The notes: generated from the letters alone by a model not told the origin. 64,000 nucleotides of DNA from an uncultured cyanobacterium (GCA_963744145.1 CAVUSO010000001.1:4246459-4310458), one strand, 5' to 3'. Counted from the first letter of the stretch, positions 2,535 to 63,946 are shown. Numbers and translations are program-made.

Positions 2535-2537
2535 TGT

Positions 2538-5080: not shown

Positions 5081-7372
5081 TTAACTCAGTTCGGGCTGGA
5101 AATGACGCAAGCGCAAAGCATTGGAGACTACGGAAACAGAACTAAATGCCATAGCTGCTCCAGCAATCATGGGGTTGAGTAACCAGCCAAAGAAGGGGAA
5201 GAAAATGCCAGTAGCGAGGAAAAGACCAGCGACGTTGTAGGCAAAAGCAAAGAAGAGATTCTGGCGAATGTTCTGCATTGTAGCGCGACTGAGACGAATG
5301 GCGGTGATGATCCCTTGAAGATCACCTGAAATCAGGGTGATATCGCTAGCGGCGATCGCCACATCTGTCCCCGTACCAATGGCTAAACCCACGTCTGCTT
5401 GAGCCAAAGCAGGTGCGTCGTTGATCCCATCTCCCACCATTGCCACAATTTTGCCTTCAGCTTGCAGCTTTTTCACGGTGTCCGCTTTTTGGTCGGGGCG
5501 CACTTCAGCTAACACGCGCTTAATTCCGACTTGTTGGGCGATCGCTGTAGCGGTACGGTGATTATCTCCAGTCAGCATCACCACCTCTAACCCCATTTTT
5601 TGCATAGTTTTAATGGCAGTAGCTGAAGCAGGTTTGATGGTGTCTGCAATAGTGATCAGTCCCTGCAAGCGCCCGTCAACGGCGATAAATACGGCGGTTT
5701 TACCTGTGTCTTCCCCAGCAACTTTTTGAGCTTGGAGGGGTAGAGTTGCAATTCCCAATTCATCCATCCAGCGTTGAGTGCCGATTTGTACCAATTGACC
5801 TGCAACGACTCCCTGCACCCCACTACCTGCGATCGCTTCAAAATTTTCAGTTTCTGGTAACAATTCTGGCTGACCAGGGGAGGAGCTTTGCTGGGTCTGG
5901 GCATAGTTAACCACAGCTTCTGCTAGAGGGTGTTCTGAGTTGCGCTCAACTGCCCCCACCAATTGCAACAGGGTGAGCGGCTCAATCGCCCAAGATTGGT
6001 GATTTTGTCGATCCACCTCCAGCATCGTCGCAAAATCTGTAACTCCGGGTTTCCCTTGAGTGATAGTGCCAGTTTTATCTAAAACCACAATTTGAATTTG
6101 ATGGGCAAGTTCTAAACTATCTGCCCCTTTAATCAAAATACCGTTTTCCGCACCTTTACCCATACCAACTGTCACAGATGTGGGAGTCGCTAAACCCAAG
6201 GCACAGGGACAAGCGATAATCAGGACGCTCACTGTAGTAATCATGGCCAGGGTAATATTGCCCATCAAGTCAAACCAAATCACAAAGGTGGCGATCGCTA
6301 ACCCAATCACCGCAGGTACAAACCATCCCGTTACTTGGTCAGCCAGTTTTTGAATTGGTGCTTTCGAGTTCTGGGACTCTTGGACCAGTTTGACAATTTG
6401 AGCTAATGCGGTATCTTTCCCCACTCGGGTTGTCTGGAACCGGAAACTGCCAGTTTTATTAATGGTGGCTCCCATCACCTGATCTCCCAATTGCTTAGTA
6501 ACCGGGATGCTCTCACCTGTAATCATCGACTCATCTACTGCTGATGAGCCAGCAATTACCTCACCATCAACCGGGATTTTTTCTCCAGGACGCACGACGA
6601 TGATATCTCCCACCACCACTTCAGCAATAGGAATATCTATCTCTTTCTGATCGCGAACTACCCTTGCTGTTTTTGCTTGTAACCCCATCAATTTACGAAT
6701 GGCTGCTGAGGTTTCGCCCTTAGCCCGGTTTTCCAAAAAGCGACCTACTAACGTTAAGGTAATGATGACAGTTGAAGCTTCAAAGTAAACCTCTGGCTTT
6801 AGTCCTTGGGATAGAAAGAATCCAGGATTTACCGTAGTCCAGACCGAATAGGAGTAGGCAATCGTCGTTCCCAAAGCAATCAGAGTATTCATATCTGCGG
6901 TGCGATGTCGAAATGCCGAAATCGCTGATCTATAAAAGGATTGACTCACCCAAAACTGAACAGGGGCAGCGATGATTAACTGGACCCAAGGAATAGCTAG
7001 CCATTGGAGAGATGAAGGCAATGACATTCCTATATGCTCAAGTGTGCTAATTATCAATAGAACGCTTAATACACCACCAACTATTACCTTCAGCTTGAGG
7101 TCTTGCTGTTCGGCTTGGCGAAGGATTTTCTCTGCATCGTCTTCTTCCTCTCCAGGCTCAGATATGGGATAAGCAGAGTAACCCGCGGCACTTACCGCTT
7201 GGACTATCTGGTCAGAACTGGTTTGCTTGGCATCGAATGTGATGGCAGCTTGCTCAATGCCAAAATTGACATTACAATTAATAACACCGGGAACAAATTT
7301 GATCGCTTGCTCAATTGTATTTGCACAAGATGCACAACCCATGCCTTTCAATCGCAAATGCAATGTTTCCAT
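5081..7372 (-). CDS. copper-translocating P1B-type ATPase
   Basis: Heavy-metal-associated (HMA) domain [12 protein letters not shown], transmembrane CPC motif ([13 protein letters not shown]), phosphorylation site DKTGTIT, and hinge motif [10 protein letters not shown]. Confidence 0.92.
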
Positions 7373-7490
7373 ATCTGACTCGGATTAATATAAGGATCAG
7401 GCAAAAAGTTAAGTTTGTTGTTTTAATTATGGTATTTTTTTTAATCTCAGAGCAGTTATTTTAGGGGCGATCGCGCAAAATGGAAAAAAC

Positions 7491-8075
7491 ATGAGTGAAT
7501 CAATCAAAGCAACCCGCGCTACTGTGGCGATCGGGACGTTAAATGTAGATGGTTATATGTTGCCTGACGGTAGTTACCGTATGTCTCAGACACAGGCGGC
7601 TGAAACTGTCGGAAAAGAAGAATTTAACGCACGGGATTTTTTAGCGTCTAAGACCTTCAAACGCTTAAGTGGTGAAGGTTATACGGACGGGAAATTTATC
7701 GAGATTGAGTCAGAATCTACTCAAGTTAGGGGGCAAAGTCGTTTTAGAGCTTTACCTTTAGAGGTCGTGGTTATCTATTGGATATACCAGTGCCATCGCG
7801 GTAATAAACAAGCTTTCTCGCTGTTGATTGCACTTGCTACTGAATCCCTAGAGCGTAGGTTTGATAATGCTTTTGGTGTGGTTCGCACTGAGCAAGAGCG
7901 CAACGATATCACTACAGCAAGGATCAATGCTCTCGAAAGAGACCTTGCTAATTTGGGTGATGGGTTTGCGATCGATGATGAAATCCGCCGCGAGCGTGAT
8001 TATTTTGAGACACTACTAAAGCAAAACGGTATCGATCCTTATGGGTTGCCAAGTGACGATCTCAAAAAACCATAA
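7491..8075 (+). CDS. hypothetical protein
   Basis: 194-aa ORF with normal codon use. No motif I can name. Confidence 0.4.
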   Translation: MSESIKATRATVAIGTLNVDGYMLPDGSYRMSQTQAAETVGKEEFNARDFLASKTFKRLSGEGYTDGKFIEIESESTQVRGQSRFRALPLEVVVIYWIYQCHRGNKQAFSLLIALATESLERRFDNAFGVVRTEQERNDITTARINALERDLANLGDGFAIDDEIRRERDYFETLLKQNGIDPYGLPSDDLKKP

Positions 8076-8403: not shown

Positions 8404-8988
8404 TCAATCCCCAAAAATCGCATCAACACTAATCACTATGTCCGGAAACGCAAGGGGTGAGATACTTTCACCGCGTCTAAACTGTTGTATACTTTCATAA
8501 CCGTTCGGACCGGGATTGCGATAAACCTCAACTAATTCAGCATTTATATCTACGATCCAAAGTTCAATAATCCCAGCTAGACTGTAGCGAAATGACTTAA
8601 CATTACGGTCGTGTTCAATTGTGGTGTCTGCTACTTCGATCAATAAATATACGTCTTGGGGTTGTGGATGTGGGTCTCGGTATGCGCGACTTTTCGAGAT
8701 TGATATATCCGGCTGCGGTTCTAATCCCCCGTTTAGTCTAACTGGAGTCTGAGCTGTAAGAAACGCACGATCACCCAAAGCCTTAGAGAAAATCGAGAGT
8801 AAAAACCCAATACAATTTGCATGACGACTACCCATCGGTGCCATAAGAATGATATCCCCATCAATTAATTCCGTCCGTTCATCAGGTCCAATTATCCCAA
8901 CTTCACCCAGTTTGTAATATTCCTCTACCGTAAACTTCTTTCTTGTTGGTGTTGTTGCTGTTGCTACTGCGATCATCTTTCTCACCAT
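8404..8988 (-). CDS. Uma2 (DUF820) family putative endonuclease, tandem copy 1
   Basis: FTVEEYYKLGE...ELIDGDII.MAPMG..H...PDISI...YLLIEVADTT...D...K...Y...GIIELWIVD is the Uma2 PD-(D/E)xK-like pattern. Confidence 0.8.
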   Translation of the reverse strand: MVRKMIAVATATTPTRKKFTVEEYYKLGEVGIIGPDERTELIDGDIILMAPMGSRHANCIGFLLSIFSKALGDRAFLTAQTPVRLNGGLEPQPDISISKSRAYRDPHPQPQDVYLLIEVADTTIEHDRNVKSFRYSLAGIIELWIVDINAELVEVYRNPGPNGYESIQQFRRGESISPLAFPDIVISVDAIFGD

Positions 8989-9134
8989 CCCATAAACTGA
9001 CTAGCTCCGATCATTCTCATTCTAATTGCGTTCACTAGCTTGTACCGTAGGTAATCGCTTTACTGGTTTGCTCCGGTGATACCTACATAGAGAAACAGTA
9101 ATACCAATTCACCATGAAGATACATTGATGTATA

Positions 9135-9310
9135 TTGATCTGTGGGTGAGGGTGGGTTTTGATGATTAGTAGGTAAATGTCAAACATCTCGGTGAACCCA
9201 CCCCTACAAAAACCCGCAAATAGAGGATAAAATTGGTAGGGGCAGGTTCACCAGTCAATTTTGCCACCAATAGATCACCATTATAAACCTGCCCTGGCCT
9301 AACAGATCAA
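9135..9310. mobile_element. MITE-like element with nested inverted repeats
   Basis: The ends ttgatctgtgggtgagggtgggttt and aaacctgccctggcctaacagatcaa are inverted. The inner pair ggtgaacccacccctac / gtaggggcaggttcacc is also inverted. The same family occurs at about 23334..23597. Confidence 0.65.
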
Positions 9311-9377
9311 CCTCAGATTAAGTGCAATTTCATAGTTAATTGGTATAAGCGCGATTGAATCCAGTTGATTAATTTTG

Positions 9378-9995
9378 TTATATATTAATCCATAAAATCT
9401 CATCAACACTGATCGCTATGTCTGGAAATGAAAGAGGTGAGATACTTTCGCCGCGTCTAAATTGTTGGATACTTTCATAACCGTTCAGACCAGGATTGCG
9501 ATAAACCTCAACTAATTCAGCATTTACGTCTACGATCCAAAGTTCAATAATCCCAGCTTGACTGTAGCGGACTGACTTCACATTGCGGTCATTGTCGATG
9601 GTCGTATGTACGGGCGTATTGCAATACGCCCCTTCGATTAATAAATATATATCTTGGGGTTGTGGATGTGGGTCTAGGTATGAAAGACGACGTTTCACGA
9701 TTGATAGATCAGGTTGGGGTTCTAATCCCCCGTTTAGTCTTACTGGAGTTTGGGACAAGATTGAAATACTTTTACCCAAAGCATCATAGAACAGTTCATA
9801 CAAACGACCCATACAATTTGCATGACGATTACCCATCGCTGCCATATAAATAATATCCCCATCAATTAATTCTGTCTTACCATCCCCAAGCATCCCCAAC
9901 TCACCCAGCTTGTAATATTCCTCTACTGTGAACTTCTTTCTTGTTGGTGTTGTTGCTATTGCTACTGCGATCATCTTTCTCACCATCCTATCCAC
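9378..9995 (-). CDS. Uma2 family paralogue, tandem copy 2, carrying an in-frame palindromic insertion
   Basis: Colinear with copy 1, except LLIEVADTTIEHDRN becomes LLIEGAYCNTPVHTTIDNDRN. The extra residues are encoded by the palindrome at 9612..9631. Confidence 0.75.
   Translation of the reverse strand: MDRMVRKMIAVAIATTPTRKKFTVEEYYKLGELGMLGDGKTELIDGDIIYMAAMGNRHANCMGRLYELFYDALGKSISILSQTPVRLNGGLEPQPDLSIVKRRLSYLDPHPQPQDIYLLIEGAYCNTPVHTTIDNDRNVKSVRYSQAGIIELWIVDVNAELVEVYRNPGLNGYESIQQFRRGESISPLSFPDIAISVDEILWINI
9612..9631. repeat. 20-nt perfect palindrome GGGCGTATTGCAATACGCCC inside a CDS
   Basis: Read directly. A second copy lies at about 12150..12169 inside the Uma2 remnant. Confidence 0.85.
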
Positions 9996-10406
9996 TAATT
10001 CTTATTCTAAATTGCTTGTGATCACAATCCCATCCCCAGCGATCCAATGTCTGTCTATTCTCTCTTCTTGAGAATGAAGCACATTTTTATAGAATCGGAT
10101 TTTTAGGCATCATCGTTGCGATCGGGCGGCAATTCTGGCCAGGCTTTCTGTTATTATTGTCCCCTCGTACTACGGATCACCCGTTCTTATGGTAATAATT
10201 AAAATTTATTGAATTTCCAAATACTTACTACATAAGCTTTTCTCCTACTCGCTCTGTCTGTTCATTTTCTGGCTAAAGAATAGACAGACATTGGGTAGTT
10301 TAGCGATCGCTAACAATTACTAATCAAACGGATCTGAAGCTTGAAACGATTGCTAATAAAACGGTAAGCGCAATTGAATCCGGGTGATTAGTAATCGAAT
10401 ATTGGT

Positions 10407-10988
10407 CTACAAAATATCGTCAACGCTAATTACTATGTCTGGAAACGCCAGGGGTGAGATAGTTTCCCCGCATCTAAATTGTTGGATACTTTCATAGCCA
10501 TTAGCACTTGGTTGGCGATAAACCTCAATTATTTTGACTTCTATGTCTACGATCCAAAGTTCAATAATTCCTGCTTTACTGTAGCTAACTGACTTCACAT
10601 TACGGTCGTGGTCAATAGTGGTGTCTGCTACTTCAATTAATAAATATACGTCTTGGGGCTGTGGGAGTAGATCCCCGTAATCATCATCACGTAGTTTCAA
10701 AACCAATAGATCCGGTTCTGGCACTAATTTTCCGTTCAATCTGACTGGGATTCGTGCGGCGATTAAAGCGCGATCATCTAAAAGTTTGGGGAAAATTTTA
10801 ATCAATCTAATTAGACCCCTTATATGACGACTACCCATCGCTGCCATATAGATAATATCCCCATCAATTAGTTCTGTCCTGCCATCTCCAAGCATCCCCA
10901 ACTCACTCAGCTTGTAATATTCCTCTACCGTGAATTGCTTTCTTGTTGGTGTTATTGCTGTTGCTACTGCGATCATCTTTTTCACCAT
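10407..10988 (-). CDS. Uma2 family paralogue, tandem copy 3
   Basis: Same motif set as copy 1. Its upstream leader (10999..11056) matches the leader of copy 1 (9001..9058). Confidence 0.8.
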   Translation of the reverse strand: MVKKMIAVATAITPTRKQFTVEEYYKLSELGMLGDGRTELIDGDIIYMAAMGSRHIRGLIRLIKIFPKLLDDRALIAARIPVRLNGKLVPEPDLLVLKLRDDDYGDLLPQPQDVYLLIEVADTTIDHDRNVKSVSYSKAGIIELWIVDIEVKIIEVYRQPSANGYESIQQFRCGETISPLAFPDIVISVDDIL

Positions 10989-11280
10989 CCCATTTACTGA
11001 CTAGCTCCGATTATTCCCATTCTAATTGCGTTCACTAGCTTGTACCGTAGGTAATCACGATCGCGTACCGTAGGTAATCGCGTGGTCGTTGTCCAGTATC
11101 TAGATTTTTTGGCGATCGCGATCGTGGTCTAGTTCCAATGTGGTCTATTATCTGGCTAGAGAATTAACAGACATTGGATAGGTTTTGATAACTAATCAAA
11201 CGGATATAAAGCTTGAAACGATTGCTAGTTAAACGGTAAGCGTGATTGAATCCGGTTGATTAGTAATCGGATCTATTGGC

Positions 11281-11874
11281 CTACAAAATATCGTCAACGC
11301 TGATCTCTATGTCTGGGAATGACAGGGGTGAGATACTTTCACCACGTCTAAATTGTTGGATACTTTCATAACCGTTCGGACCAGGATTGCGGTAGACCTC
11401 TATCAATTCGGCTTTTACATCTACGATCCAAAGTTCAATAATTCCTGCTTGACTGTAGAGGACTGATTTTTCATTACGGTCATATCCCGCCGTGGTGACC
11501 GATACTTCAATTAATAGATATACGTCTTGGGGTTGTGGGAGTTGATACCTGTAACGATCACCACGCCGTTTCAAAATTGATATATCCGGTTCTGGTTCTA
11601 ATCTGCCGTTTAGCCTGACTGGGGTCTGGGCTACGACTGATGCACGATCATTTAAAAGTTTGGGAAAAATTTCAATCAGCCCAATTAAACAACTTACATG
11701 ACCACTACCCATCGGTGCCATAAGCATAATATCCCCATCAATTAGTTCTGTCCGTTCATCCGGTCCGATTATCCCTAATTCACCCAGTTGGTGATATTCC
11801 TCGACCGTGAACTTCTTTCTTGTTGGTGTTGTTGCTGTTGCTACTGCGATCATCTTTCTCACCATCCTATCCAC
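11281..11874 (-). CDS. Uma2 family paralogue, tandem copy 4
   Basis: Same motif set. It shares the MDRMVRKM N-terminal extension and the upstream leader with copy 2. Confidence 0.8.
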   Translation of the reverse strand: MDRMVRKMIAVATATTPTRKKFTVEEYHQLGELGIIGPDERTELIDGDIMLMAPMGSGHVSCLIGLIEIFPKLLNDRASVVAQTPVRLNGRLEPEPDISILKRRGDRYRYQLPQPQDVYLLIEVSVTTAGYDRNEKSVLYSQAGIIELWIVDVKAELIEVYRNPGPNGYESIQQFRRGESISPLSFPDIEISVDDIL

Positions 11875-23856: not shown

Positions 23857-23997
23857 ACAGCGATCGCCATCTCAATATTTCGCCCAGTTCTCCGCTGATG
23901 TCCTCCAAAATATTCTTAACTGAACCGTATTGCGGTATGATTAACTGTCAGAACGCTATTCCCAGAGCGAGGCGATCGCAGTGAAACAATAATAAAG

Positions 23998-26192: not shown

Positions 26193-29100
26193 TCATTTCC
26201 ATTGATTACAAACTTCTTTTATAGAATCAACTACACCTCGCATAGCTGTTTCTTCACCTAATGAAATAATAGCAGGATAAAGAGTTACTAAGTTTTTTAT
26301 AAAGTCTTGTCTATTAGTAGATGCTAGGATGTGAAGATATAACTTCCAATCAGAGAATGATAAATTAGATAAATCAAGACTATGGAGAAAACCATTGATT
26401 GCTTTTGCTTGATTTGGTTTAGAATTTATCTTAAAAATCTCATTTTTCACTTGAGATAATAATTGTTCAGGTACGAATTTACTTAGACCATTCAATACCT
26501 CTGCCCGACTGGATTCATCCTGAATAGTGCGTGCCGCATCCAAGGCTTCGGCAAAATAGGCCCTATCAATCTGAGCAAGGGAACTCAATACCTCTGCCCG
26601 ACTGGATTCATCCTGAATAGTGCGTGCTGCATCCAAGGCTTCGGCAAAATAGGCCCTATCAATCTGAGCAAGGGAACTCAATACCTCTGCCCGACTGTAT
26701 TTATCCTGAATAGTACGTGCCGCATCCAATAAAACTGAGAAATCTGCACCATCAATCTGAGCAAGAGATCTCAATACCAATGCCCGAAGGGATTCAGACT
26801 GAATAGCGCGTGCCGTATCCAATAAAACTGAGAAATCTGCACTATCAATCTGAGCAAGAGATCTCAATACTAATGCTCGAAGGGGTTCAGACTGAATAGT
26901 GCGTGCTGCATCTAATGCTTCTCCAAAATAAGCACTATCAATTTGAGCAAGGAATCTCAATACCTCTGCCCGACTGTATTTATCCTGAATAGCGCGTGCC
27001 GCATTCAATAAAACTGAGAAATCCGCACTATCAATCTGAGCAAGGGATCTTAATACCCATGCCCGCAAGAATTTATCCTGAATAGTGTGTGCCGCATCCA
27101 ATAAAACTGAGAAATCCGCACTATCAATCTGAGCAAGGGAACTCAATACCTCCGCCCGAATAGATTCAGACTGAATAGCGCGTACTGCATCCAATGCTTC
27201 GGCAAAATAGGCCCTATCAATCTGAGCAAGGGAACTTAATACCTTTGCCCGAATAGATTCATCCTGAATAGCGCGTGCCGCATCCAATGCTTCTGTAAAA
27301 CAGGCACTATCAATCTGAGCAAGGGAACTCAATACCTTTGCCCGAAGTGCCCGACGGGATTCATCCTGAATAGCGCGTGCCGCATCCAATGCTTCTGTAA
27401 AACAGGCACTATCAATCTGAGCAAGAGAACTCAATACCCATGCCCGAAAGGATTCATCCTGAAGAGCGCGTGTCGCATCCAATGCTTCGGCAAAATAGGC
27501 CCTATCAATCTGAGCAAGAGAACTCAATACTAATGCCCAAATGAATTGATCCTGACTAGCTTGTGCTGCATCCAATGCTTCTGTAAAATAGGCATTATCA
27601 ATCTGAGCAAGAGAACTCAATACTAATGCCCGATTTTTTTCATCCTGAATAGCGCGTGCTGCATCTAATGCTTCGGTAAAATAGGCCCTATCAATCTGAG
27701 CCAGGGCACTCAATGCCTCTGCCCGATTTTTTTTATCCTGAATAGCGCGTGCTGCATCCAATGCTTCGGTAAAATAGGCCCTATCAATCTGAGCCAGGGC
27801 ACTCAATACTTCTGCCCGATTGGATTCATTCTGAATAGCGCGTGTCGCATCCAATGCTTCGGCAAAATAGGCCCTATCAATCTGAGCCAGGGCACTCAAT
27901 GCCTCTGCCCGATGGTATTCATCCTGAATAGCGCTTATTTTTGTTAAAGCCTTCTTAAATAATGGTTTGGAAAAATAACAACATAATCCCTTAATCCATT
28001 CGGCTATTTTATGTTCATCTTGCATTTGCTCTACATAAGCCCAAGCTTGCTCTATTGTCCAAAATTTACCTTTGACAAATTCTTTGATCATGTCAATCGG
28101 TAGGTTTTCCAATAAACTGTTTAATGTTGCTGTAATTAAGGCATACCGATATTGCAGAACAATAGAGCGGGTTTTGTCTTGCTCATATTGTTGTTCGGCG
28201 ATCGCCCAAGCTCTAGCCACATCTTCCACAAAAATTGCTGGTTGACCAAGGCGATCGCAAGTTTCAAACCAAGCATTATGTCCTAAGCGATCGCTACTAC
28301 CTAGAAGAGTATGAATTTCATCAATCCAACCAGCTTGCTCTAAGTGCCAAGTCAACTGACGATGAATATATCCATCATTCGGTAAATTATACCAAGATTT
28401 TTCCTCAGTTTTTTCTCGGTAACGTTCTAGAAATTGTTGATGAGCCAAAGATAAGCAAGAACAATTTTTATCCCTAGAGCCTAGAGAATTAAGCTTACCT
28501 TCTTCAATCAGACTCCGAGCCATATCGTGCATAAGGTCGTGGATACGATAGGTTGGCTCATCCTCTAATGTAGTAACACCATCAGTCAGAAAAGAACGGT
28601 GTCGCAATAATGACAATCTTTGTTTAACTTGCACATTAGACGACAAATTCCACAGAACCGAAGCAACCTCTAGGGTAAGATTAACATCTTCTGGCAAAAT
28701 ACCTAACCAGGCAAACTGTTCTAACTGTTCCTGATTCAGCCGCTTTAAACTTAAGTTGAAACAAACTTCCAAACTATGTTTACGCTGTTCTTGCTCATCT
28801 AAATCTTCCCATCTTTCCGATGACTGTAAAAGTTTAAATACTCTAGAAAACTCAGCCTTAAATTCAGCTCGTAATTCCGCCCAAGTTGAACCATCTTTGA
28901 TTAAGTTAATCGCTAAATCCAGAGCTAATGGCAAATATCCCAATACCTGAGCAAAGGCTTTTGCTTCTATTTGATCAGCATCTTTCCAATCTTTGCCTAA
29001 CTTTCCTTTAATCAGTTCTAACGCTTCATCTTCGCTCATCAAATCTAAAGAATAGTAATCAGCCTGAGCAATTCTTGCTTCCCTAGTTGTCACCAATACC

Positions 29101-30296
29101 CGACAACCTTCACCACCCACCTGAAACCATTTAGCATGATCTGCATTCCACACATCATCTACTACCAGCAACATTTGTTTTTCTGCTAACAAAGTTTGTA
29201 AATACTGAGTAGCTGATTCCTTAGTATTTGCACTAAATGCTTCCCGCGATCGATCAAGCTCTCGAATCCAATCCCCTAATAACTTCTGTAAATCCGGTTT
29301 TTGTCCTAAAGTTACCCAGAGAATTCCATCTTCAAACCGAGCATTTACTTCTGGATCTCGCACTAGAGCCGCAGCTAAAACTGACTTTCCTAAACCTCCT
29401 AATCCAGCGATCGCGGTTACTACCAGAGTTTGTCCATTTCTGCCCAGAAGTTTTTCTTTTACTGCTTTGAGAGCATCTAACCGTTCCACGTAATTTTCTG
29501 GTAAGGGAATATGGGGAAACGACTTAGATTTCTGAGGTTTTCTTTGAGTAGAATAATTGAGAATGGGAATAGGTCGTCCACTGAGCAGGTGAACGGGTTC
29601 TTGACCACTTCCCTTTAATTGAATACAAATAAAAACGGTTAGTATACCAGCATAAATATTGCCATCATCAGCAGCTTGTTCCGGTTGGAGTCCTTGCAGC
29701 AACGCTTTAGTAAAAAGACCATGCTCTTGATCTTCATAAGCCTTTTCTTCGGCTCTACAAGCTGTAATTAAACAATAGTCAGGCTGACGATTAAAGCTTT
29801 TTAAAGTTGACTGTACTAAATCTTTGCTGAAGGTCTCAAGTAAAGCTCCTGCATGACAGCAATCTAAGAGAATTACTAAACTGCTGAGATCAGAATCGCT
29901 CACCAACTTATTCAAATCTTCTAATCGAATCAGCGTTTCCATATCTTTTTTAGCAGAATTGGAAGCAGCGAGAAAACCTTGTTTTTCTCCAGAAAGAGTA
30001 GTTATTTGAAAACCATGTCCTGCATAATAAACTAGAGCATCTTTCCGAGCAGCTTTTTCGAGCAGAAAAGTTTTTAGAGTTTGATAGAGATCGGCAGCTA
30101 GAACTTTTTGTGAGATAATCTCATAACGACTTTTCTCATTAACCCATTTACAAGGAAACCGGACAACCTCTTGAAAAGCTCCAGACCGTTCTAGCAATTG
30201 AGCCATTTCCTCCGCATCAGTAACCGCTTTCTTTAAGGAAGGGAAACTAGGAGAGTCATATTGAGAAATACCGATTACCAGTGCATATCGCGTCAT
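26193..30296 (-). CDS. STAND NTPase: caspase-like (C14) protease + NB-ARC ATPase + helical linker + fifteen 31-aa HEAT-like repeats
   Basis: Caspase dyad YYAGHGF / LLDCCHAGA. NB-ARC motifs GLGGLGKSVLAAA (Walker A), LLVVDDVW (Walker B) and VLVTTR. C-terminal repeats of consensus AEVLSSLAQIDRAYFAEALDAARAIQDESSR. Confidence 0.85.
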   Translation of the reverse strand: MTRYALVIGISQYDSPSFPSLKKAVTDAEEMAQLLERSGAFQEVVRFPCKWVNEKSRYEIISQKVLAADLYQTLKTFLLEKAARKDALVYYAGHGFQITTLSGEKQGFLAASNSAKKDMETLIRLEDLNKLVSDSDLSSLVILLDCCHAGALLETFSKDLVQSTLKSFNRQPDYCLITACRAEEKAYEDQEHGLFTKALLQGLQPEQAADDGNIYAGILTVFICIQLKGSGQEPVHLLSGRPIPILNYSTQRKPQKSKSFPHIPLPENYVERLDALKAVKEKLLGRNGQTLVVTAIAGLGGLGKSVLAAALVRDPEVNARFEDGILWVTLGQKPDLQKLLGDWIRELDRSREAFSANTKESATQYLQTLLAEKQMLLVVDDVWNADHAKWFQVGGEGCRVLVTTREARIAQADYYSLDLMSEDEALELIKGKLGKDWKDADQIEAKAFAQVLGYLPLALDLAINLIKDGSTWAELRAEFKAEFSRVFKLLQSSERWEDLDEQEQRKHSLEVCFNLSLKRLNQEQLEQFAWLGILPEDVNLTLEVASVLWNLSSNVQVKQRLSLLRHRSFLTDGVTTLEDEPTYRIHDLMHDMARSLIEEGKLNSLGSRDKNCSCLSLAHQQFLERYREKTEEKSWYNLPNDGYIHRQLTWHLEQAGWIDEIHTLLGSSDRLGHNAWFETCDRLGQPAIFVEDVARAWAIAEQQYEQDKTRSIVLQYRYALITATLNSLLENLPIDMIKEFVKGKFWTIEQAWAYVEQMQDEHKIAEWIKGLCCYFSKPLFKKALTKISAIQDEYHRAEALSALAQIDRAYFAEALDATRAIQNESNRAEVLSALAQIDRAYFTEALDAARAIQDKKNRAEALSALAQIDRAYFTEALDAARAIQDEKNRALVLSSLAQIDNAYFTEALDAAQASQDQFIWALVLSSLAQIDRAYFAEALDATRALQDESFRAWVLSSLAQIDSACFTEALDAARAIQDESRRALRAKVLSSLAQIDSACFTEALDAARAIQDESIRAKVLSSLAQIDRAYFAEALDAVRAIQSESIRAEVLSSLAQIDSADFSVLLDAAHTIQDKFLRAWVLRSLAQIDSADFSVLLNAARAIQDKYSRAEVLRFLAQIDSAYFGEALDAARTIQSEPLRALVLRSLAQIDSADFSVLLDTARAIQSESLRALVLRSLAQIDGADFSVLLDAARTIQDKYSRAEVLSSLAQIDRAYFAEALDAARTIQDESSRAEVLSSLAQIDRAYFAEALDAARTIQDESSRAEVLNGLSKFVPEQLLSQVKNEIFKINSKPNQAKAINGFLHSLDLSNLSFSDWKLYLHILASTNRQDFIKNLVTLYPAIISLGEETAMRGVVDSIKEVCNQWK
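26490..27930. repeat. 93-bp tandem repeats, about 15 copies, inside the STAND gene
   Basis: The period is read directly: tcctgaatagtgcgtgc recurs at 26518 and 26611. The last two units are identical at the protein level. Confidence 0.85.
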
Positions 30297-30882: not shown

Positions 30883-31461
30883 ATGAACAGTTTAACTCTC
30901 AACCTACCGCCTGTTCTCAAATTAACAGATGAGCAGTTTGAACAATTGGCGGCTGTTAATGGCGATTTAGGTTTAGAATTGACACCGAAGGGAGAACTAA
31001 TTGTTATGCCACCGACGGGAGGAGAAACCGGAAACCGAAATTTTGAGGCTTACATTGACTTGGGAATTTGGAACCGTCAAACTCTTTTGGGAAAAGCTTT
31101 TGATTCTTCTACAGGATTTCGATTACCTCAAGGTGGTACTCGTTCCCCTGATATTTCTTGGGTGACGATAGGACGTTGGAATAATCTTACTGAAGAGCAA
31201 CGCAAGAAATTTTTGCCTTTATGTCCTGATTTTGCGATCGAACTAGTTTCAGAAACAGATGATGTGGAAGAAACACGGGCAAAAATGCAGGAATATTTAC
31301 AAAATGGGTTACGTTTGGGATGGTTGATTAATCCTAAACTCAGACAAGTGGAAATTTATCGCCCGAATCAAGAGGTAGAGGTTTTGGCATCTCCTACGAC
31401 TTTATCGGGTGAGGATGTTTTACCAGGGTTTGTTTTAGATTTAGAGTTCATTTTTTCCTAA
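30883..31461 (+). CDS. Uma2 family putative endonuclease (second subfamily), copy L
   Basis: LTDEQFEQLA...GELIVMPPTGGETGNRNFE...SPDISWV...PDFAIELVSETD...GLRLGWLINP is the Uma2 pattern. Confidence 0.8.
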   Translation: MNSLTLNLPPVLKLTDEQFEQLAAVNGDLGLELTPKGELIVMPPTGGETGNRNFEAYIDLGIWNRQTLLGKAFDSSTGFRLPQGGTRSPDISWVTIGRWNNLTEEQRKKFLPLCPDFAIELVSETDDVEETRAKMQEYLQNGLRLGWLINPKLRQVEIYRPNQEVEVLASPTTLSGEDVLPGFVLDLEFIFS

Positions 31462-32369: not shown

Positions 32370-32462
32370 TGCTTGTCAATAGGTTTTGTAAAAATATTTT
32401 ATAAAGCATCTAAACGCTATAACAACGTAATACCAATGTTTTCACGCCACACCGTGTAATGT

Positions 32463-32572
32463 TTCTACGCTCACCTGTAGAAATTTCTATGCTCACCTAT
32501 AAAATTTTCTACGCTCACAAGATATAATTTCTACGCGGGACTATATAATTTTCTATATTATTTTTACTGGTA
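32463..32572. repeat. 22-bp tandem repeat, about 5 units, inverse orientation relative to the array at 46653
   Basis: ttctacgctcacctgtagaaat / ttctatgctcacctataaaatt / ttctacgctcacaagatataat / ttctacgcgggactatataatt / degenerate unit. Confidence 0.8.
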
Positions 32573-36012: not shown

Positions 36013-36591
36013 ATGAACAGTTTAACTCTCAACCTACCGCCTGTTTTCAAATTAACAGATGAGCAGTTTGAACAATTGGCGGCTGTTAATGGCGATTTAG
36101 GTTTAGAATTGACAGCGCAGGGAGAACTAATTATTATGCCACCGACGGGAGGAGAAACAGGCGATCGCAATTTTGAAATTGATGGACAGCTTTGGTTGTG
36201 GAATCGTCAAAATTTTCTGGGGAAAGCCTTTGATTCTTCTACAGGGTTTCGATTACCAAATGGCGCAACTCGTTCTCCCGATGTGGCTTGGATCAAAATT
36301 GAAAGATGGGAAGCTTTAACCCCGACACAAAGAAAGAAATTTTTACCGCTATGTCCTGATTTTGCGATCGAACTGGTTTCAGAAACAGATGATGTGGAAG
36401 AAACGCGAGCAAAAATGCAGGAATATTTACAAAATGGATTGCGGTTGGGATGGTTGATTAATCCTAAACTCAGAGAAGTGGAAATTTATCGCCCGAATCA
36501 AGAGGTAGAGGTTTTGGTATCTCCTACGACTTTATCGGGTGAAGATGTTTTACCAGGGTTTGTTTTAGATTTAGAGTTCATTTTTTCCTAA
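36013..36591 (+). CDS. Uma2 family putative endonuclease (second subfamily), copy R
   Basis: Same length as copy L. The first ~100 nt and last ~240 nt are nearly identical to copy L, while the middle is diverged. Confidence 0.8.
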   Translation: MNSLTLNLPPVFKLTDEQFEQLAAVNGDLGLELTAQGELIIMPPTGGETGDRNFEIDGQLWLWNRQNFLGKAFDSSTGFRLPNGATRSPDVAWIKIERWEALTPTQRKKFLPLCPDFAIELVSETDDVEETRAKMQEYLQNGLRLGWLINPKLREVEIYRPNQEVEVLVSPTTLSGEDVLPGFVLDLEFIFS

Positions 36592-39073: not shown

Positions 39074-39196
39074 CGAAAAATTAATAATCTTGATCCTCCA
39101 GGTGCCTAATTTTCGAGGTGCCTGGTGAGAAATTTCCCAAAAAATTAGACCTAGGGACTTGCAAATCAAGATTAGAATTTGTTATAATCTAGTACA

Positions 39197-39339
39197 GTTC
39201 AGTTAATTGTAGGGGCGTTCGCGTAGCGTGCCGGAGGCATAGCATTCGGGCGATAACTTATCACTTAAACAAGTTAATATTATATCCGAATGCTTCGCCC
39301 TTCTTCGCCGATATCTCCCAAAATATTCTTAACTGAACC
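39197..39339. mobile_element. 143-bp MITE with 10-nt terminal inverted repeats and an internal long hairpin
   Basis: Terminal inverted repeats gttcagttaa (39197) and ttaactgaac (39329). The internal arms GGGGCG...AGCATTCGGG / CCGAATGCTTCGCCC are the same module as hairpin B of the 405-bp array. Confidence 0.65.
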
Positions 39340-39354
39340 ATATTGTGTTATAAT
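39316..39354 (+). promoter_or_regulatory. candidate promoter for tRNA-Thr, partly contributed by the MITE end
   Basis: TATAAT at 39349..39354, 10 nt before the tRNA 5' end. TTCTTA lies 17 nt upstream, inside the MITE terminus. Confidence 0.35.
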
Positions 39355-39556: not shown

Positions 39557-40591
39557 ATGTCATCAAAATATATGTTTCCCTTTCAATATCCAGTTCCCCA
39601 AAAAGATCCTCCGGCTCACCCGCGAGAAACTCTCCCCACCATGTATGATCTACCCAGTGAAAACCCGGAGGAACCTGGTTTGCCCGATGAATTTCATGAT
39701 TGGCAACCTCAATTTTTGAGTGCAACTTTTCGTCCCCGAAAATATCCGATCGCGCGAGTATTTAGTGCCAGTGACATGAATCTTTACTATGATGTGCGTC
39801 ATCCTTTGTGGTACAAACGACCAGATTGGTTTGGAGTCGTGGGGGTATCGAGATTGTATGATGAAGTTGATTTACGTCTTTCCTATGTGATTTGGCAAGA
39901 AGGTGTCAATCCAGTGGTCGTAGTAGAATTGCTCTCACAAGGAACGGAAAAGGAAGATTTAGGTACTAGAAATATAAAAACTTGGTCTGGAGAAGATGCT
40001 TCAGGAACAGGGAATGGAAAAGAAGGGAAACCCCCAAGCAAATGGGAAGTATATGAGCAAGTGTTAAGAATTCCCTATTATTTTGTCTTCAGTCGTTATA
40101 CTAATCAACTGCAAGCATTTCAGTTAGTCGGAGGAAAGTATCAAGCATGGGAACTAGAATCGCAAGGGAGATGGATTGAAGAATTAGGTTTAGGATTGGG
40201 TTTATGGCAAGGCGAATATCAAGGAGTAGAGCGATTATGGTTACGTTGGTATGATCAAGAAGGTAATTGGATTCTAACAGAAGCTGAACAGGAACGTCAA
40301 CGCGCTGAACAACAGGCTCAATTAGCCCAACAAGAGCATCTGAGAGCTGAACAACAGGCTCAATTAGCTCAACAAGAGCGTCTGAGAGCTGAACAACAGG
40401 CTCAATTAGCTCAACAAGAGCGTCTGAGAGCTGAACAACAGGCTCAATTAGCCCAACAAGAGCATCTGAGAGCTGAACAACAGGCTCAATTAGCCCAACA
40501 AGAGCGTCTGAGGGCTGAACAACAAGACCAACAATATCAAGATTTGTTGCGAAAATTGCAAGAAAAAGGCATTAATATAGAAGACCTATAA
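39557..40591 (+). CDS. Uma2 family protein (long-N-terminus subfamily) with a C-terminal Q/A/E-rich repeat tail
   Basis: PTMYDLPSENPEEPGLPDEFHDWQPQFL..., PDWFGV, VVVVELLSQGTEKEDL. Then 14-aa repeats AEQQAQLAQQE(H/R)LR. Confidence 0.75.
   Translation: MSSKYMFPFQYPVPQKDPPAHPRETLPTMYDLPSENPEEPGLPDEFHDWQPQFLSATFRPRKYPIARVFSASDMNLYYDVRHPLWYKRPDWFGVVGVSRLYDEVDLRLSYVIWQEGVNPVVVVELLSQGTEKEDLGTRNIKTWSGEDASGTGNGKEGKPPSKWEVYEQVLRIPYYFVFSRYTNQLQAFQLVGGKYQAWELESQGRWIEELGLGLGLWQGEYQGVERLWLRWYDQEGNWILTEAEQERQRAEQQAQLAQQEHLRAEQQAQLAQQERLRAEQQAQLAQQERLRAEQQAQLAQQEHLRAEQQAQLAQQERLRAEQQDQQYQDLLRKLQEKGINIEDL
40304..40530. repeat. 42-bp tandem repeat, about 5.4 copies, inside the Uma2 gene tail
   Basis: The unit gctgaacaacaggctcaattagcccaacaagagcatctgaga starts at 40304, 40346, 40388, 40430 and 40472. 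Confidence 0.85.
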
Positions 40592-46424: not shown

Positions 46425-46652
46425 AATACTTAATCTGTGAATAGGAAGAATTGAAAAATTGTTGTAGTTGTTAGCATAAACAATTATGGATACCAAAAAT
46501 AGTGATTTTTTGGCCCAGAATGGCGATCGCTACCTAAAACCTGTCCCAAAAACTTGCACCTCAGATTCGTGACGGCGATTTTACTTCCTTAGAAGTAATT
46601 GTAGAATTTTCAATTTCCCTAGGTATAATCTATGATTTTTTTAGAGAAAATA

Positions 46653-46876
46653 TAGAATTTTCTATAGGTGAGCATAGAATTTTCTATAGGTGAGCATAGA
46701 ATTTTCTATAGGTGAGCATAGAATTTTCTATAGGTGAGCATAGAATTTTCTACAGGTGGACATGCAATTCCTTATAGATGAGCGTAGAATTTTCTATAGG
46801 TGACCGTAGAATTTTCTACAGGTGAGCGTAGAATTTTCTATAGGTGAGCGTAGAATTTTCTACAGGTGAGCGTAGT
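46653..46876. repeat. 22-bp tandem repeat, 10 units, each containing the palindrome TAGAA-TT-TTCTA
   Basis: The unit tagaattttctataggtgagca starts at 46653 and recurs every 22 nt to 46872. Degenerate units lie upstream from about 46601. Confidence 0.9.
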
Positions 46877-58460: not shown

Positions 58461-60040
58461 ATGAATAGTGAAGTATCAACCGTCAATAATCATCCAGGTT
58501 ACGATATTATTGCCTTTGGAGACGAAGTCCCAGGAGTATTAGGGATCGTATCTGCAGCAAGAGAGTATTTTCGTCAGACTAAAAAGTATCCCCGGACCTG
58601 CTGATCTCAAAAGGAAATTTCGCGATCGGAATTGGTGGAGTTTTAGTGAGAGGAGGTTTGGCTTATTTAGATAGAAGTCAAATTGATGGCAATATGCGTC
58701 AATCATTAGGTTTAGAGAACTTTGGCGCTCCCGCATCAATATATAAAGAATTTTTACAAAGAACGGGAGTAGTGAGTGTAGCACTTGATCCCCATCGAGC
58801 TAATCAAGTGCTGCGGGAAATGCTGTTAGAGTCTGGAGTTAGTCTGCTGGGTAACGCTCAGATTACAGATGTGATCAAAGAAGATCAAGTGATCAAAAGC
58901 ATTGTGACATCTAATGGTCAGAGTTATGGAGCTAAACAATTTATTGATTGTACTATTCATGCTGAATTGGCACAAGCAGCTGGGGTGAAAAAGTTGAAGG
59001 GATTTGAAACCTTTGGTTTACCAGAATCAGAATTAGCAGTTACCTTTATTTTTGAAACTCAAGGGATTAGTCCGCAAACCCTCAAAGACATCGAACTTAA
59101 TTATCTCAAACGTTTCACAGATCTAAATGATGCTCAAGCCCAAAAGTCCTTGCTCAACGCCGCTGGTTCAGATGCCAAGTTAGCAGAAAGACTAAGACAA
59201 AATATGGTTGATCAGAACGGGAAACTCAAAAATTTCTGGATTGGTCCTGATTATATCGATATTCGTTCTCCAGCTTTTTCCGTAGCTTATCATGCTTTTC
59301 GCGGCAAAAAAATCTCTCTCCCAGAAAAAGGTTTTATTTTTGACTTAGCTAATATTGCGATTCTGCCTGATCAAAGGTTATCTTGGAATAACTTACTCTT
59401 TACTGTGACCGGTACTCAAGCAGAGGAACTAGCTCGAAATGGTGCCAAACCAAATGCGGCTATGTGCGAAGAAATGTCTTTTGTCGAAAAATGGTTTAAG
59501 AGTATTGGTGCTACTGGGGTAACTGCGGCTTCAGAAATTTATATTAGACACGCTGGTAATGTTACCGGAGTAGTAAAACCATTGACTGGAACTCAAATGT
59601 TAGCAGGAGGAGTACCAGCAGAGGAAGCTTTAGGAACTTTTAGTTATCATTTTGATGTTCGCGGTGGAATTCCCGGAATTGGTAATAAAGCTAGTGCTAA
59701 GGGAGTTTCTGGTTTGAGTTTTGGGAATCCGATTTTTAATTATGGGATTCAACACTGTTTAATTCAAGATATTCCTAATCTCGCTGTTGTTAGTCCTAGT
59801 TCAGGATTTGAAGGTTTAGCTCCAGCCGCAGGTAGAATTGTTGAATTTAATAGTGGTGTTGCCCAAGGAGTTGGAATTGCTGCAACTTTAGCAATTCTGG
59901 GCAAAAAAAATTTAGCGGATATATCGAATCAGGAAGTAAAGCAAGTTTTAATTAATAATGGTCAATATCCGAAAATTTTTGGGATTGATCAAACCGCAGA
60001 AGCATCTAGATTAGGACAGTTAGAAACTTTGTTAGCTTAA
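58461..60040 (+). pseudogene. FAD-dependent oxidoreductase-like gene with a frameshift near 58600
   Basis: The ATG at 58461 gives MNSEVSTVNNHPGYDIIAFGDEVPGVLGIVSAAREYFRQTKKYPRTC*. A shifted frame continues LISKGNFAIGIGGVLVRGGLAYLDRSQ... into the listed ORF 58646..60040. Confidence 0.55.
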
Positions 60041-60177
60041 CTGGTTTTTGATCTTAAGGTAGTCTCTGCAAGATGGTGCAGGTACGAAAAATCAATAGAC
60101 AAGAAAGCAAAAGTCAAAAATATTTGTTTGTAGTAACGGCTGTCTTCCCTCAAATATTGAGCATGATTGGGACTGAA

Positions 60178-61625
60178 CCATTCTTTGCCGAGCTCTCCCA
60201 AAATATTCTTAACTGAACCCTACAAAAATTGTCTCCTCTAGTTTGAATGCTGATTTATGATAGTCAATCTGTGTGATTCATGAACCCAGGGCAAAGCATT
60301 TCGGTCATAGATTTCGGTCGAGGCGATAATTTCTGAGCCGAAATGCTTTGCCCCTACAAATATTACAAATATGGACAAGATTTGGTTCTTGTTTCCTGAG
60401 CGCGATCGCGAAGAGCCACAAAATCTGCATTATCATACAGTTTGGTTAATTGTAGGGGCGAAGCATTCGGGCGATAATTAATCACTCAAGCCTTTACCCT
60501 GAGCGTAGTCGAAGGGCATAATTTTAGATCCGAATGCTTCGCCCATTCTTTGCCGAGAGCTCCCAAAACATTCTTAACTGAACCATTCTTTGCCGAGCTC
60601 TCCCAAAATATTCTTAACTGAACCCTACAAAAATTGTCTCCTCTAGTTTGAATGCTGATTTATGATAGTCAATCTGTGTGATTCATGAACCCAGGGCAAA
60701 GCATTTCGGTCATAGATTTCGGTCAAGGCGATAATTTCTGAGCCGAAATGCTTTGCCCCTACAAATATTACAAATATGGACAAGATTTGGTTCTTGTTTC
60801 CTGAGCGCGATCGCGAAGAGCCACAAAATCTGCATTATCATACAGTTTGGTTAATTGTAGGGGCGAAGCATTCGGGCGATAATTAATCACTCAAGCCTTT
60901 ACCCTGAGCGTAGTCGAAGGGCATAATTTTAGATCCGAATGCTTCGCCCATTCTTTGCCGAGAGTTCCCAAAACATTCTTAACTGAACCATTCTTTGCCG
61001 AGCTCTCCCAAAATATTCTTAACTGAACCCTACAAAAATTGTCTCCTCTAGTTTGAATGCTGATTTATGATAGTCAATCTGTGTGATTCATGAACCCAGG
61101 GCAAAGCATTTCGGTCATAGATTTCGGTCGAGGCGATAATTTCTGAGCCGAAATGCTTTGCCCCTACAAATATTACAAATATGGACAAGATTTGGTTCTT
61201 GTTTCCTGAGCGCGATCGCGAAGAGCCACAAAATCTGCATTATCATACAGTTTGGTTAATTGTAGGGGCGAAGCATTCGGGCGATAATTAATCACTCAAG
61301 CCTTTACCCTGAGCGTAGTCGAAGGGCATAATTTTAGATCCGAATGCTTCGCCCATTCTTTGCCGAGAGCTCCCAAAACATTCTTAACTGAACCATTCTT
61401 TGCCGAGAGTTCCCAAAATATTCTTAACTGAACCCTACAAAAATTGTCTCCTCTAGTTTGAATGCTGATTTATGATAGTCAATCTGTGTGATTCATGAAC
61501 CCAGGGCAAAGCATTTCGGTCATAGATTTCGGTCAAGGCGATAATTTCTGAGCCGAAATGCTTTGCCCCTACAAAGATTACAAATACGGACAAGATTTGG
61601 TTCTTGTTTCCTGAGCGCGATCGTT
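60178..61625. repeat. 405-bp tandem repeat, about 3.6 copies, non-coding
   Basis: Unit starts at 60178, 60583, 60988 and 61393. Each unit carries two long hairpins (GGGCAAAGCATTTCGG...CCGAAATGCTTTGCCC and GGGCGAAGCATTCGG...CCGAATGCTTCGCCC). The track shows no ORF of 60 aa or more between 60041 and 61861. Confidence 0.9.
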
Positions 61626-61861
61626 GTTATTCTCCTACTTTTTCCGGAGGTTTTAGCTTAATTCCTCGCAAACGATAAGCCGTACTGACACTAGCTTCTA
61701 TAGCATTGTCCAGCTTATTGCTTAACCCATTTACAAAAGTTAATACATTACCTATTACTTTTGTCCGACTACTTATATGATTATAACATTTTTAGGTTTT
61801 CACGCCACAGTCACGCCATTAGGGTGCGACGCGAAAGCTTGATTGTTCAGTCAGAATTAGG

Positions 61862-63946
61862 TTAGGTCTGTGTAAGTTCTGCAATTGGCACAGACCGATA
61901 CTTGACCGCAGCGATCGCTAAATCCCGCACTAGCTGTAATAAAGTTTCCTGACTATAAGCTCCTTTTTGGAGAATTTGCTGCACATAACCATTGAGAGAC
62001 TCTTTTTCCGCATGAGATAGATCGATCGCTGTAATCACAATAATTGGTAGCGATCGCCCGATTGGCATTTGTCGTAATTGTCTAATAAATTCAAACCCAT
62101 CTACTTCTGGTAACATTAAATCTAACAAAATCAAATCTGGGGGATGAGCGACTACTTGCTCAAGTCCAATCCGACCATTTTCCGCCATGATTACTGTCCA
62201 ACCAGCTTTTTCTAAAATTTTTCCTAACATCTGGCGAGTCATAATATCATCTTCAACTACCAGAATTTGACTAGATTTTTCTTGTTCATATTTTTGCAAT
62301 AAATTAGCTAATTGCTGATGATCAATTGGTTTGACCAAATAATCGGTAGTCCCAATCGTAAAACCCGTATTTTTATCATCAACAAATGTCAACAAAATCA
62401 CTGGTACATCAGCCAATTTTGGATCAGCTTTCAAAGCTAATAAAACTTCCCAACTATTCATCTCCGGAATCAACACATCTAAAATAATTACATCCGGATG
62501 ACAAGTTTGCGCTAACTCTAATCCAGTCTGAGCAGTTGTCGCACTTTCAATTTTAAATCCTTCCTGCTGTAAATGCTGGGAAATTAAAGCGTGAACTGCT
62601 GGATCATCATCGATGAGTAATAGCACTTTTTGATCAATAATCTGCTCAGATAGATGATCATTTTTGCTAGTTAATGGCTGATCTGGAAATTGATGATTTT
62701 CTGGTTCTTGCATATTTTTCTGATTGACGATCGCGGGGAGACGAATAATAAAAGTAGATCCTACTCCTACTTCGCTATTAACCGTAATATCCCCACCCAT
62801 CATCTGACAAAATTTCTTGGTGATCGTTAAACCCAAACCAGTACCACCATATTTGCGAGTGGTGCTAGCATCTGCTTGGGTAAAAGCTTCAAATACAGAT
62901 TTGATCTGTTCTGAATTCATCCCAATCCCCGAATCAGTAACTCGAAAAGTTAAGATCGAACTATCCAGAGTTTTACTTGCATCTTCCTCTTGTTCAGGTT
63001 TGACTTCTAAAATAATTATTCCCGCTTGGGTAAATTTAGCAGCATTACTGAGCAGATTAAATAGAGATTGTCTAATCTTAGTCGGATCAGAATACATTGG
63101 GCCAATATTTTCCGCACAAATAACCTGCAATTCATTACCTTTATTTTCAATTAATGGCTGGATCGTCGATACGACTTCCGCAATTAAACTCGGTACATCA
63201 AAAGTTGTTAAGTCTAATTCCATCCGACCAGCTTCAATTTTAGAAAAATCCAGAATATCATTAATTAAAGACAGCAGATGCTTACCAGCTACATAGATGT
63301 TTTTCAGATCACCAACCAAGTCTTCTGCACCAGTTGCTTGGGCATCTTCTTGGAGTAATTCACTATAACCAATAATCGCATTTAATGGTGTCCTTAATTC
63401 ATGGCTAATATTTGCCAAAAATTGACTTTTAGCCCGATTTGCTGTTTCTGCTGCTTCTTTTTGCTCTTGGACTAAATTATTCGCGATCGCTAACAGTTGA
63501 GCTTGACCTAACTGGAGCATATGAAAATCCAATAACTCAAAATGCCCATCCTCAAATTCAATAATAATCGGCTCATAAACCAATTCGAGCGGACGATTTA
63601 ACGCGATTTGCGCCGCAGTATGGATGGGACAAGATGCGGATAATACCAGATGTTCTATTGGTAAAGAAGCGTTATTTTTAATGACATTTAATAAAACTTG
63701 GATCGGGCGTTTTAAATAAAGTTCTAAACTATAGGGTCTACTCATCCATGTGAGGAATTTTGCCCGAGAAATCATGCCTAACATTTGGGAGCCCTCAGCA
63801 ACAATTACTCCTGGTAAACCTAAATGACGTTCAAATTCAGTGACAACAATTCGTCCTAAAGTTGCCGAACTAATTTGAAAATTATGAGAAGGGAAATCTC
63901 CTAATTTAGAATCAAGGTTTAAAGGTGGTAAGTTGACATCTAGCAC
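61862..63946 (-). CDS. hybrid sensor histidine kinase with two receiver domains
   Basis: H-box [18 protein letters not shown] and HATPase boxes (NAAKFT, DSGIGM, GTGLGL). Two REC domains (LLIDDD...[13 protein letters not shown] and ILVVEDD...[14 protein letters not shown]). Confidence 0.9.

Follow-up and report, generated by a model that had tools for sequence, protein, structure and literature searches.

Near the right end of a 64-kb window of DNA from a soil cyanobacterium (the window being the whole stretch analysed here, 64,000 nucleotides) lies a 1.45-kb non-coding tandem array, and the question it raises is whether its units are small genes that give rise to a structured RNA or members of a repeat family already known in bacteria. 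The array is best read as a recent local tandem amplification of a 405-bp non-coding segment that contains two hairpins, A and B, of the REP (repetitive extragenic palindrome) type, short palindromes dispersed by REP-associated tyrosine transposases (RAYTs). On this reading, to which we give a probability of roughly 0.78, it is an ordinary bacterial repeat cluster of the described REP/RAYT system, nothing in it marks it as a new RNA gene, and no selected function is required to explain it.

The array was delimited with Tandem Repeats Finder (TRF), and its features are collected in Table 1. The extent agrees with the original prediction, which had counted 3.6 units of 405 bp (~1.45 kb) starting at 60178, 60583, 60988 and 61393; these starts describe the same array, 6 nt out of phase with the TRF units. 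Written as a formula, the array consists of R (237 bp)-M (168 bp) three times, followed by a final R. An absence of ORFs of 60 aa or more over 60041..61861 had also been claimed, and indeed the longest ORF touching 60041-61861 has 54 aa. CRISPR or coding-repeat readings are excluded by the anatomy of the array and by stops in all frames.

Both elements expected in every unit, i.e. two long hairpins and a duplicated terminus motif, are present. REP A reads GGGCAAAGCATTTCGG...CCGAAATGCTTTGCCC-CTAC and REP B reads GTAG-GGGCGAAGCATTCGG...CCGAATGCTTCGCCC, and the arms of both are perfect (16 nt in A, 60289-60304 / 60338-60353; 15 nt in B, 60456-60470 / 60530-60544). The arm pattern has 16 matches in the 64-kb window, compared with 0.23 expected by chance. 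Since the foot of REP A is on its right and that of REP B on its left, the two form an inverted pair whose feet face inward; the spacer between them measures 94 nt and has a HIP1 site close to its middle. Next to the feet, the 26-nt arms of A and B are 85% complementary and lie 84 nt apart; palindromy in the rest of the A-B spacer is marginal (p ~0.06). The terminus motif forms a 40-bp tandem pair, T' then T, that spans each unit junction (T'/T starts at 60543/60583, 60948/60988 and 61353/61393), and T' is at the same time the right flank of REP B.

Table 1. Features of the array, of its dispersed copies and of the surrounding genes, in window coordinates
Feature	Position	Strand	Details
Whole tandem array	60172..61623	.	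Period 405 bp, 3.585 units, 99% matches, 0 indels (TRF)
Units in TRF phase	60172-60576, 60577-60981, 60982-61386, partial 61387-61623		TRF and unit comparison
REP hairpin A	60289..60357	-	16-bp arms, 33-nt loop, foot CTAC at 60354-60357 (GTAG on the minus strand)
Further hairpin A copies	60694-60762, 61099-61167, 61504-61572		
REP hairpin B	60452..60544	+	Foot GTAG at 60452-60455, 15-bp arms, 59-nt loop
Further hairpin B copies	60857-60949, 61262-61354		
Tandem pair of the 40-bp motif, T' then T	60543..60624	+	TRF period 40 x 2
Further T'-T pairs	60948-61029, 61353-61434		
Lone first T	60178-60219		
HIP1 palindrome GCGATCGC	60402..60409	.	In the spacer between the A and B feet; again at 60807-60814 and 61212-61219
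HIP1 half-site GCGATCG	61617-61623		Right end of the array; divergence from 61624 on
ACTGAACC	60172..60179	+	Left array edge; matches the end of T/T' over 8 nt
Dispersed copy of REP B and T motif	39193..39339	+	Upstream of tRNA-Thr; left arm broken by a 23-nt insertion
Degenerate copy, REP right-arm relic (TTTCGCCC) and T motif	23880..23926	+	
Upstream flanking gene, FAD-dependent oxidoreductase	58646..60040	+	Pfam PF12831 and homologues; 3' end toward the array
Downstream flanking gene, hybrid histidine kinase	61862..63946	-	Pfam HisKA, HATPase_c, Response_reg; 3' end toward the array
Uma2-family gene regions	8404-11874, 30883-31461, 36013-36591, 39557-40591		

Repeats of this kind interrupt short-read assemblies, and public contigs do end at the array edges; together with at least one discrepancy of 1 bp between the window and an independent contig, this could mean that the assembly has over-expanded or mis-joined a repeat of which the genome truly carries one unit, and that the array is an artefact. 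The depth profile argues otherwise. In the only public run that contains the locus (ERR11571142, a 2024 soil metagenome, as short-read Logan contigs), the contigs over the left junction (60107-60201) and the right junction (61594-62347) have depths of 5.4 and 6.0, whereas an array-specific contig (60172-60335) reaches 20.7. This corresponds to ~3.8 copies and agrees with the four occurrences of segment 60172-60335 in the window. Because both array edges are at single-copy depth and the interior is at 20.7, in independent contigs, we regard ~4 copies as real. A separate contig of the same run crosses the T'-T unit junction (60527-60589), and ordered, alternating differences between copies are unexpected from mis-assembly. 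An artefact is thus extremely unlikely.

One other contig of this run, at a depth of 13.6, joins 60361 to 60497 through 14 other letters (CTGGACAAAACTTG). It is most likely a related REP copy from elsewhere in the genome or the community and not a variant of the array.

When the copies are compared column by column, unit 3 matches unit 1 at all 405 bp, and unit 2 differs from them at two positions only, 149 (G->A) and 389 (C->T). Position 149 reads G/A/G/A across the copies and position 389 reads C/T/C, which are the alternating diagnostic substitutions that had been reported; the growth by duplication of an 810-bp dimer deduced from them is supported by the identity of units 1 and 3 and by the two alternating sites. 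The partial unit 4 has the A of unit 2 at position 149 plus three private changes, one of which (AGT at 61408-61410) makes a T'/T chimera of the fourth T (61393-61434). In an order of events that is based on very few variable sites, a first duplication would have fused the T' end with the T start, possibly via an 8-nt microhomology, for which ACTGAACC at the left edge is the candidate. Unequal homologous exchange would next have doubled the 810-bp two-unit block, gene conversion between T' and T would have yielded the chimeric fourth T, and a deletion at the HIP1 site would have trimmed the last unit at the right end.

Outside the array, REP B and T' recur together as a ~147-bp composite at 39193-39339 and as a relic at 23880-23926. 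The first of these is 87-92% identical to hairpin B plus motif, and hairpin B is therefore, as had been proposed, the module of the copy noted at 39197. In total, the window has seven hairpins in the array and, outside it, a copy at 39.2 kb and a relic at 23.9 kb. In the metagenome run, k-mers of the REP B left arm have a depth of 873 against a single-copy depth of 5.4, a value that may include DNA of other organisms, given that the reads are metagenomic and that several taxa have this stem. The REP upstream of tRNA-Thr carries a 23-nt insertion in its left arm (39216-39240, TTCGCGTAGCGTGCCGGAGGCAT), which resembles the very small dispersed repeats that reportedly nest in other repeats of filamentous cyanobacteria. 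The terminus motif appears to be lineage-specific, since the pattern CCAAAAYATTCTTAACTGAAC had no match in GTDB species genomes and only two chance matches in JGI metagenomes, both in apparently coding sequence that does not resemble the repeat.

The two T-motif copies outside the array have a further 15 nt in common (RTATTGYGKTATRAT, at 23927-23941 and 39340-39354) that carries a -10-like hexamer, and both are located upstream of plus-strand genes, namely tRNA-Thr and a HipA-like module. The extended repeat could be a repeat-borne promoter that the array copies do not have. The earlier remark that the motif lies just upstream of -10-like boxes at the tRNA and HipA loci thus holds for those two places, but it does not extend to the array, where the T copies are followed by other sequence and the RTATTGYGKTATRAT extension is missing. 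At the tRNA locus, the best promoter-like site is upstream of the inserted REP element.

From this motif context, the original prediction had gone on to suggest a promoter in each unit and, as the product of the array, a structured RNA of high abundance. Each 405-bp unit would then be a small gene with a motif-borne promoter, and the array as a whole a source of non-coding RNA similar to NsiR1. The two motif copies with -10-like boxes ahead of plus-strand genes speak for it, as does the finding that the units fold far better than shuffled sequences (z -5.4 and -4.7); the high z-scores, however, are explained by the REP palindromes. Promoter-like sites in 59900-62000 occur at the chance level (4 versus 4.3 expected), and they are found inside loop B and not after the motif. 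Intrinsic terminators in the units are also near the chance level (3 versus 1.7 expected), the only candidate being a weak one on the minus strand inside loop B. Searching the array against Rfam returned nothing at the gathering threshold or at E up to 10, NsiR1 included, and the array sits between convergent 3' ends, which also counts against the RNA model. Nothing in the sequence features would argue for unit-wise promoters. The predicted RNA is therefore unsupported, and we consider this model quite unlikely; an NsiR1-type tandem sRNA gene array was rejected in view of chance-level promoters and the lack of an Rfam match.

The hairpin stem belongs to a family that extends far beyond this genome. 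Scanning one genome per GTDB species with the pattern GGGCRAAGCATT-N35-65-AATGCTTYGCCC gave at least 119 loci, showing that the stem GTAG-GGGCRAAGCATT...AATGCTTYGCCC-CTAC recurs across Cyanobacteria and other phyla. Among the first 80 of these at least 119 loci, 46 are cyanobacterial and 34 are not. The non-cyanobacterial hosts comprise Brocadia/Brocadiaceae, Chloroflexota/Anaerolineae, Armatimonadota, Latescibacterota, Calditrichaceae, Deltaproteobacteria, Acidimicrobiia and unclassified MAGs. All extracted hairpins share the outer stem GTAG-GGGCGAAGCATT, whose three bottom pairs are G-C; the next 3-4 stem pairs vary in sequence with their complementarity kept, and the loop is unalignable between phyla and tightly distributed in size around a mode of 32-35 nt. 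Of 133 hairpins, 125 carry a GTAG/CTAC foot, 98 of them on one side only and 27 on both. With its 33-nt loop, its stem and its foot, hairpin A is typical of the family.

At loci where gene orientation could be classified, 23 are convergent, 26 tandem and 3 divergent, versus an expectation of 13/26/13, so the family hairpins are strongly biased to convergent or 3' intergenic positions and avoid divergent regions. The array, placed between the convergent 3' ends of the oxidoreductase (+) and histidine kinase (-) genes, occupies a typical convergent-gene position of the family. No recurrent neighbouring gene, which would be a sign of cis-regulatory RNA, was seen among the loci of the at least 119 matches listed. 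Because of this and of the avoidance of divergent regions, the hairpins are viewed as dispersed REP-type elements, and the cis-regulatory RNA reading was rejected. A tandem REP unit occurs in just 1-2 of the 119 loci listed, the largest (L055) being 169 bp x 2.5; arrays as large as the present one are uncommon for the stem family in this 119-locus sample. The literature on the stem yielded one relevant match, a Microcystis toxin-antitoxin module flanked by 152-bp repeats with the same 16-nt inverted repeat, which were not read as REP in their source publication. The RAYT-linked REP of N. punctiforme (Bertels & Rainey) was considered as well and has a different sequence.

In other genomes, the same hairpins are found within and beside RAYT-like genes. 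In a Chloroflexi locus (L016), a gene at 6463-7026 (187-aa ORF) contains an internal hairpin at 6738-6798, and a second hairpin (7033-7093) follows directly after the stop codon. The ORF shows the hallmarks YDYSQPGAYFVT, the HUH motif MPNHFHGII, WQRGYYDRII and YIEENP. In the cyanobacterium Egbenema (L125), the gene at 2501-3058 has an internal hairpin at ~2776-2850 and a very similar 5' hairpin at 2348-2420, ~80 bp upstream of the start codon, and at a third locus (L122, gene 2501-3220) nested internal hairpins are accompanied by another one ~60 bp downstream of the stop codon. The L016 locus also bears an IS200-type Y1 transposase gene (7450-7914; PF01797, E 3.7e-41), ~420 bp from the RAYT gene and on the opposite strand.

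An alignment of 24 RAYT sequences shows RRGEAF, a variable linker and NASPL right after the HUH motif, and RRGEAF...NASPL is the in-frame translation of cGTAGGGGCGAAGCATT...AATGCTTCGCCCCTA (the other frame gives VGAKHS). Residues A110 and P112 are invariant in the 24 sequences, which come from several phyla, and the motifs are found in ~100 of the best 120 homologues. At E <= 1e-5, more than 5,488 homologues of the L016 ORF are known, named 'REP element-mobilizing transposase RayT' in their sources. Among NCBIfam models, REP_Tyr_transpos fits best, with a score of 69 bits that falls short of the 80-bit equivalog cutoff; among PDB structures, the best match is 4ER8, E. coli TnpA_REP. The partner gene of the family is a Y1/HUH RAYT and not a DDE transposase. 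From the alignment, the gene seems to have the internal REP as a fixed component of ancestral origin and not as an occasional insertion; being carried in frame within the transposase gene could be the reason why the stem is nearly identical across phyla.

These properties correspond to a described class. TnpA_REP subclass 2.4, which is Bertels's group 4, has the motifs NH[IFV]H, WQ and YIxNNP, and its REPs come in two forms, 'double foot' and 'canonical long', the latter having a 5' GT[AG]G foot and a stem whose three lowest pairs are G-C; in-frame REP insertions within tnpA_REP are also known from it (Quentin et al. 2018, PMC6006769). Both REP A and REP B have a GT[AG]G-type foot and three bottom G-C pairs, and hairpins that flank tnpA_REP and lie in frame inside it are those seen in the other genomes (L016, L125 and L122). 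Because their stems are identical with hairpins in or beside such genes elsewhere, A and B can be assigned, on sequence grounds, to the REPs of the substrate family of TnpA_REP subclass 2.4 / RAYT group 4.

No RAYT (Y1_Tnp) gene was detected in the 64-kb window, either with Pfam on 44 ORFs or with an HMM of the 24-sequence alignment on the six-frame translation; since the window has no such gene, we infer a cognate RAYT in this organism from the other genomes. Such an enzyme might itself have made the array by HUH cleavage and rejoining at the feet, or the array might be its working site, a reservoir or a landing pad. Every unit does offer two REP feet, and the REPIN clusters of P. fluorescens adjoin their RAYT (PMC3116915). 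The unit boundaries, however, are off the REP feet, with ACTGAACC at the left edge and a HIP1 site at the right one, and a RAYT gene is absent within the ~60 kb of the window to the left and the ~2.4 kb to the right. A RAYT-made array is highly unlikely, and the local amplification most likely took place without transposase help.

By eye, 'PNLVHICNICRGKAF' resembles 'MPNHVHGII..RRGEAF' and 'SQNILN' resembles 'IQNFKS', and the flanks of A and B together with the terminus motif were considered as relics of RAYT coding sequence. This idea was dropped: in a shuffle test against 100 RAYT sequences the flanks did no better than opposite-orientation controls (p = 0.09-0.9), and a profile HMM search for RAYT relics in the flanks, on the six-frame translation of the window, gave no match.

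The window has 39% G+C and 75 HIP1 (GCGATCGC) sites, and the array had no match among plasmid records. The best homologues of the oxidoreductase are from Microcoleus, Tychonema and Aerosakkonema at just 66% identity; the source is therefore a filamentous cyanobacterium without a close sequenced relative. The oxidoreductase gene itself is split, its N-terminal 47 aa being in a separate upstream frame (58461-58604) followed by a 464-aa ORF, compared with ~520 aa in homologues. An independent contig (L126) has the same split, with an extra 1-bp indel and one mismatch near window position 59120, and the split may be either a real pseudogene or strain variant, or an assembly error.

The window is also rich in Uma2-family and toxin-antitoxin genes; seven Uma2-family genes (putative restriction endonuclease, PF05685) are present, four of them consecutive on the minus strand. 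Other repeats include a 93-bp repeat x 15.4 (84% identity, 26492-27934) within a 1,367-aa ORF (26193-30296, minus), which suggests a protein built from ~15 repeats of 31 aa. Non-coding arrays of short period are found at two places, 22 bp x 10.2 at 46652-46875 (ATAGAATTTTCTATAGGTGAGC, 88% matches) and 22/44 bp x 2-3 at 32450-32555 (TTTCTACGCTCAC...); both look like iterons or operators.

The REP cluster could be kept by selection between the two convergent genes as a multi-hairpin RNA 3' end, an insulator, a topological buffer or the source of a processed small RNA derived from the REPs, with a dosage tuned by copy number, which we hold to be highly improbable; if true, this would make it the first case in cyanobacteria of a functional tandem REP array linked to a subclass 2.4 RAYT system. 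At most, the hairpins may have the roles of REPs in other places, either as structures at RNA 3' ends or as structural DNA elements in the gap between convergent genes. With an unselected, locally amplified REP cluster, a striking candidate RNA locus would be explained by known selfish or domesticated REPs and ordinary tandem amplification. The array would then also serve as an example of growth by microhomology, dimer doubling, gene conversion and HIP1 trimming. The stem, in addition, is usable as a marker of subclass 2.4 RAYT in the annotation of cyanobacterial, anammox and Chloroflexota genomes.

Among known systems, the NsiR1 array of Anabaena/Nostoc is similar in consisting of tandem direct repeats in a cyanobacterial intergenic region. 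Each NsiR1 repeat reportedly has its own promoter and terminator and gives an sRNA of ~60 nt, as Ionescu et al. are said to have described in 2010, whereas the present array has neither a promoter signal nor an Rfam match. Cyanobacterial MITEs (Nezha, MaeMITE; PMC3184786) resemble the hairpins in being short, palindromic, multi-copy, non-coding and intergenic, but they need terminal inverted repeats shared with an IS as well as target-site duplications, neither of which was found here. An autonomous element bounded by the arms was looked for, and inspection of the 119 loci listed revealed no longer arm-bounded element and no consistent flanking direct repeats. The label MITE, used in the original prediction for the copy at 39197, was imprecise, as the hairpins are REPs of the RAYT system (PMC6006769). 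A REPIN consists of two inverted REPs that jointly make one long hairpin and replicate as a unit; A and B are inverted by their feet, but the feet point inward and each REP is already a long hairpin.

Di Nocera et al. (2013, PMC3733652) note tandem REP/REPIN clusters generally in REP-rich genomes, and the GTAG-tagged REP superfamily and BIME-like dimers presented there share with our hairpins the GTAG tag, an extragenic location and hosts among Cyanobacteria, Chloroflexi and Planctomycetes. The REPs of subclass 2.4 (PMC6006769) have the same long hairpin, GT[AG]G foot, three G-C pairs and single or double foot, and the same hosts, i.e. Cyanobacteria plus scattered phyla. They differ in that the REPs here have no transposase gene in the window and are arranged in tandem with 300 bp of flanking DNA, and in that the 59-nt loop of hairpin B is unusually long against the family mode of 32-35 nt. 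The tandem arrangement has its counterpart in P. fluorescens SBW25 (Bertels & Rainey 2011, PMC3116915), in which 16 tandem clusters of near-identical palindromic repeats with their flanks are known and each of three REPIN families has a cluster beside its RAYT. Those clusters involve another RAYT group and another REP sequence, whereas the unit here is larger (405 bp) and has two inward-footed REPs; the largest SBW25 cluster comprises four REPINs in just over 700 bp, and the present array is about twice that length.
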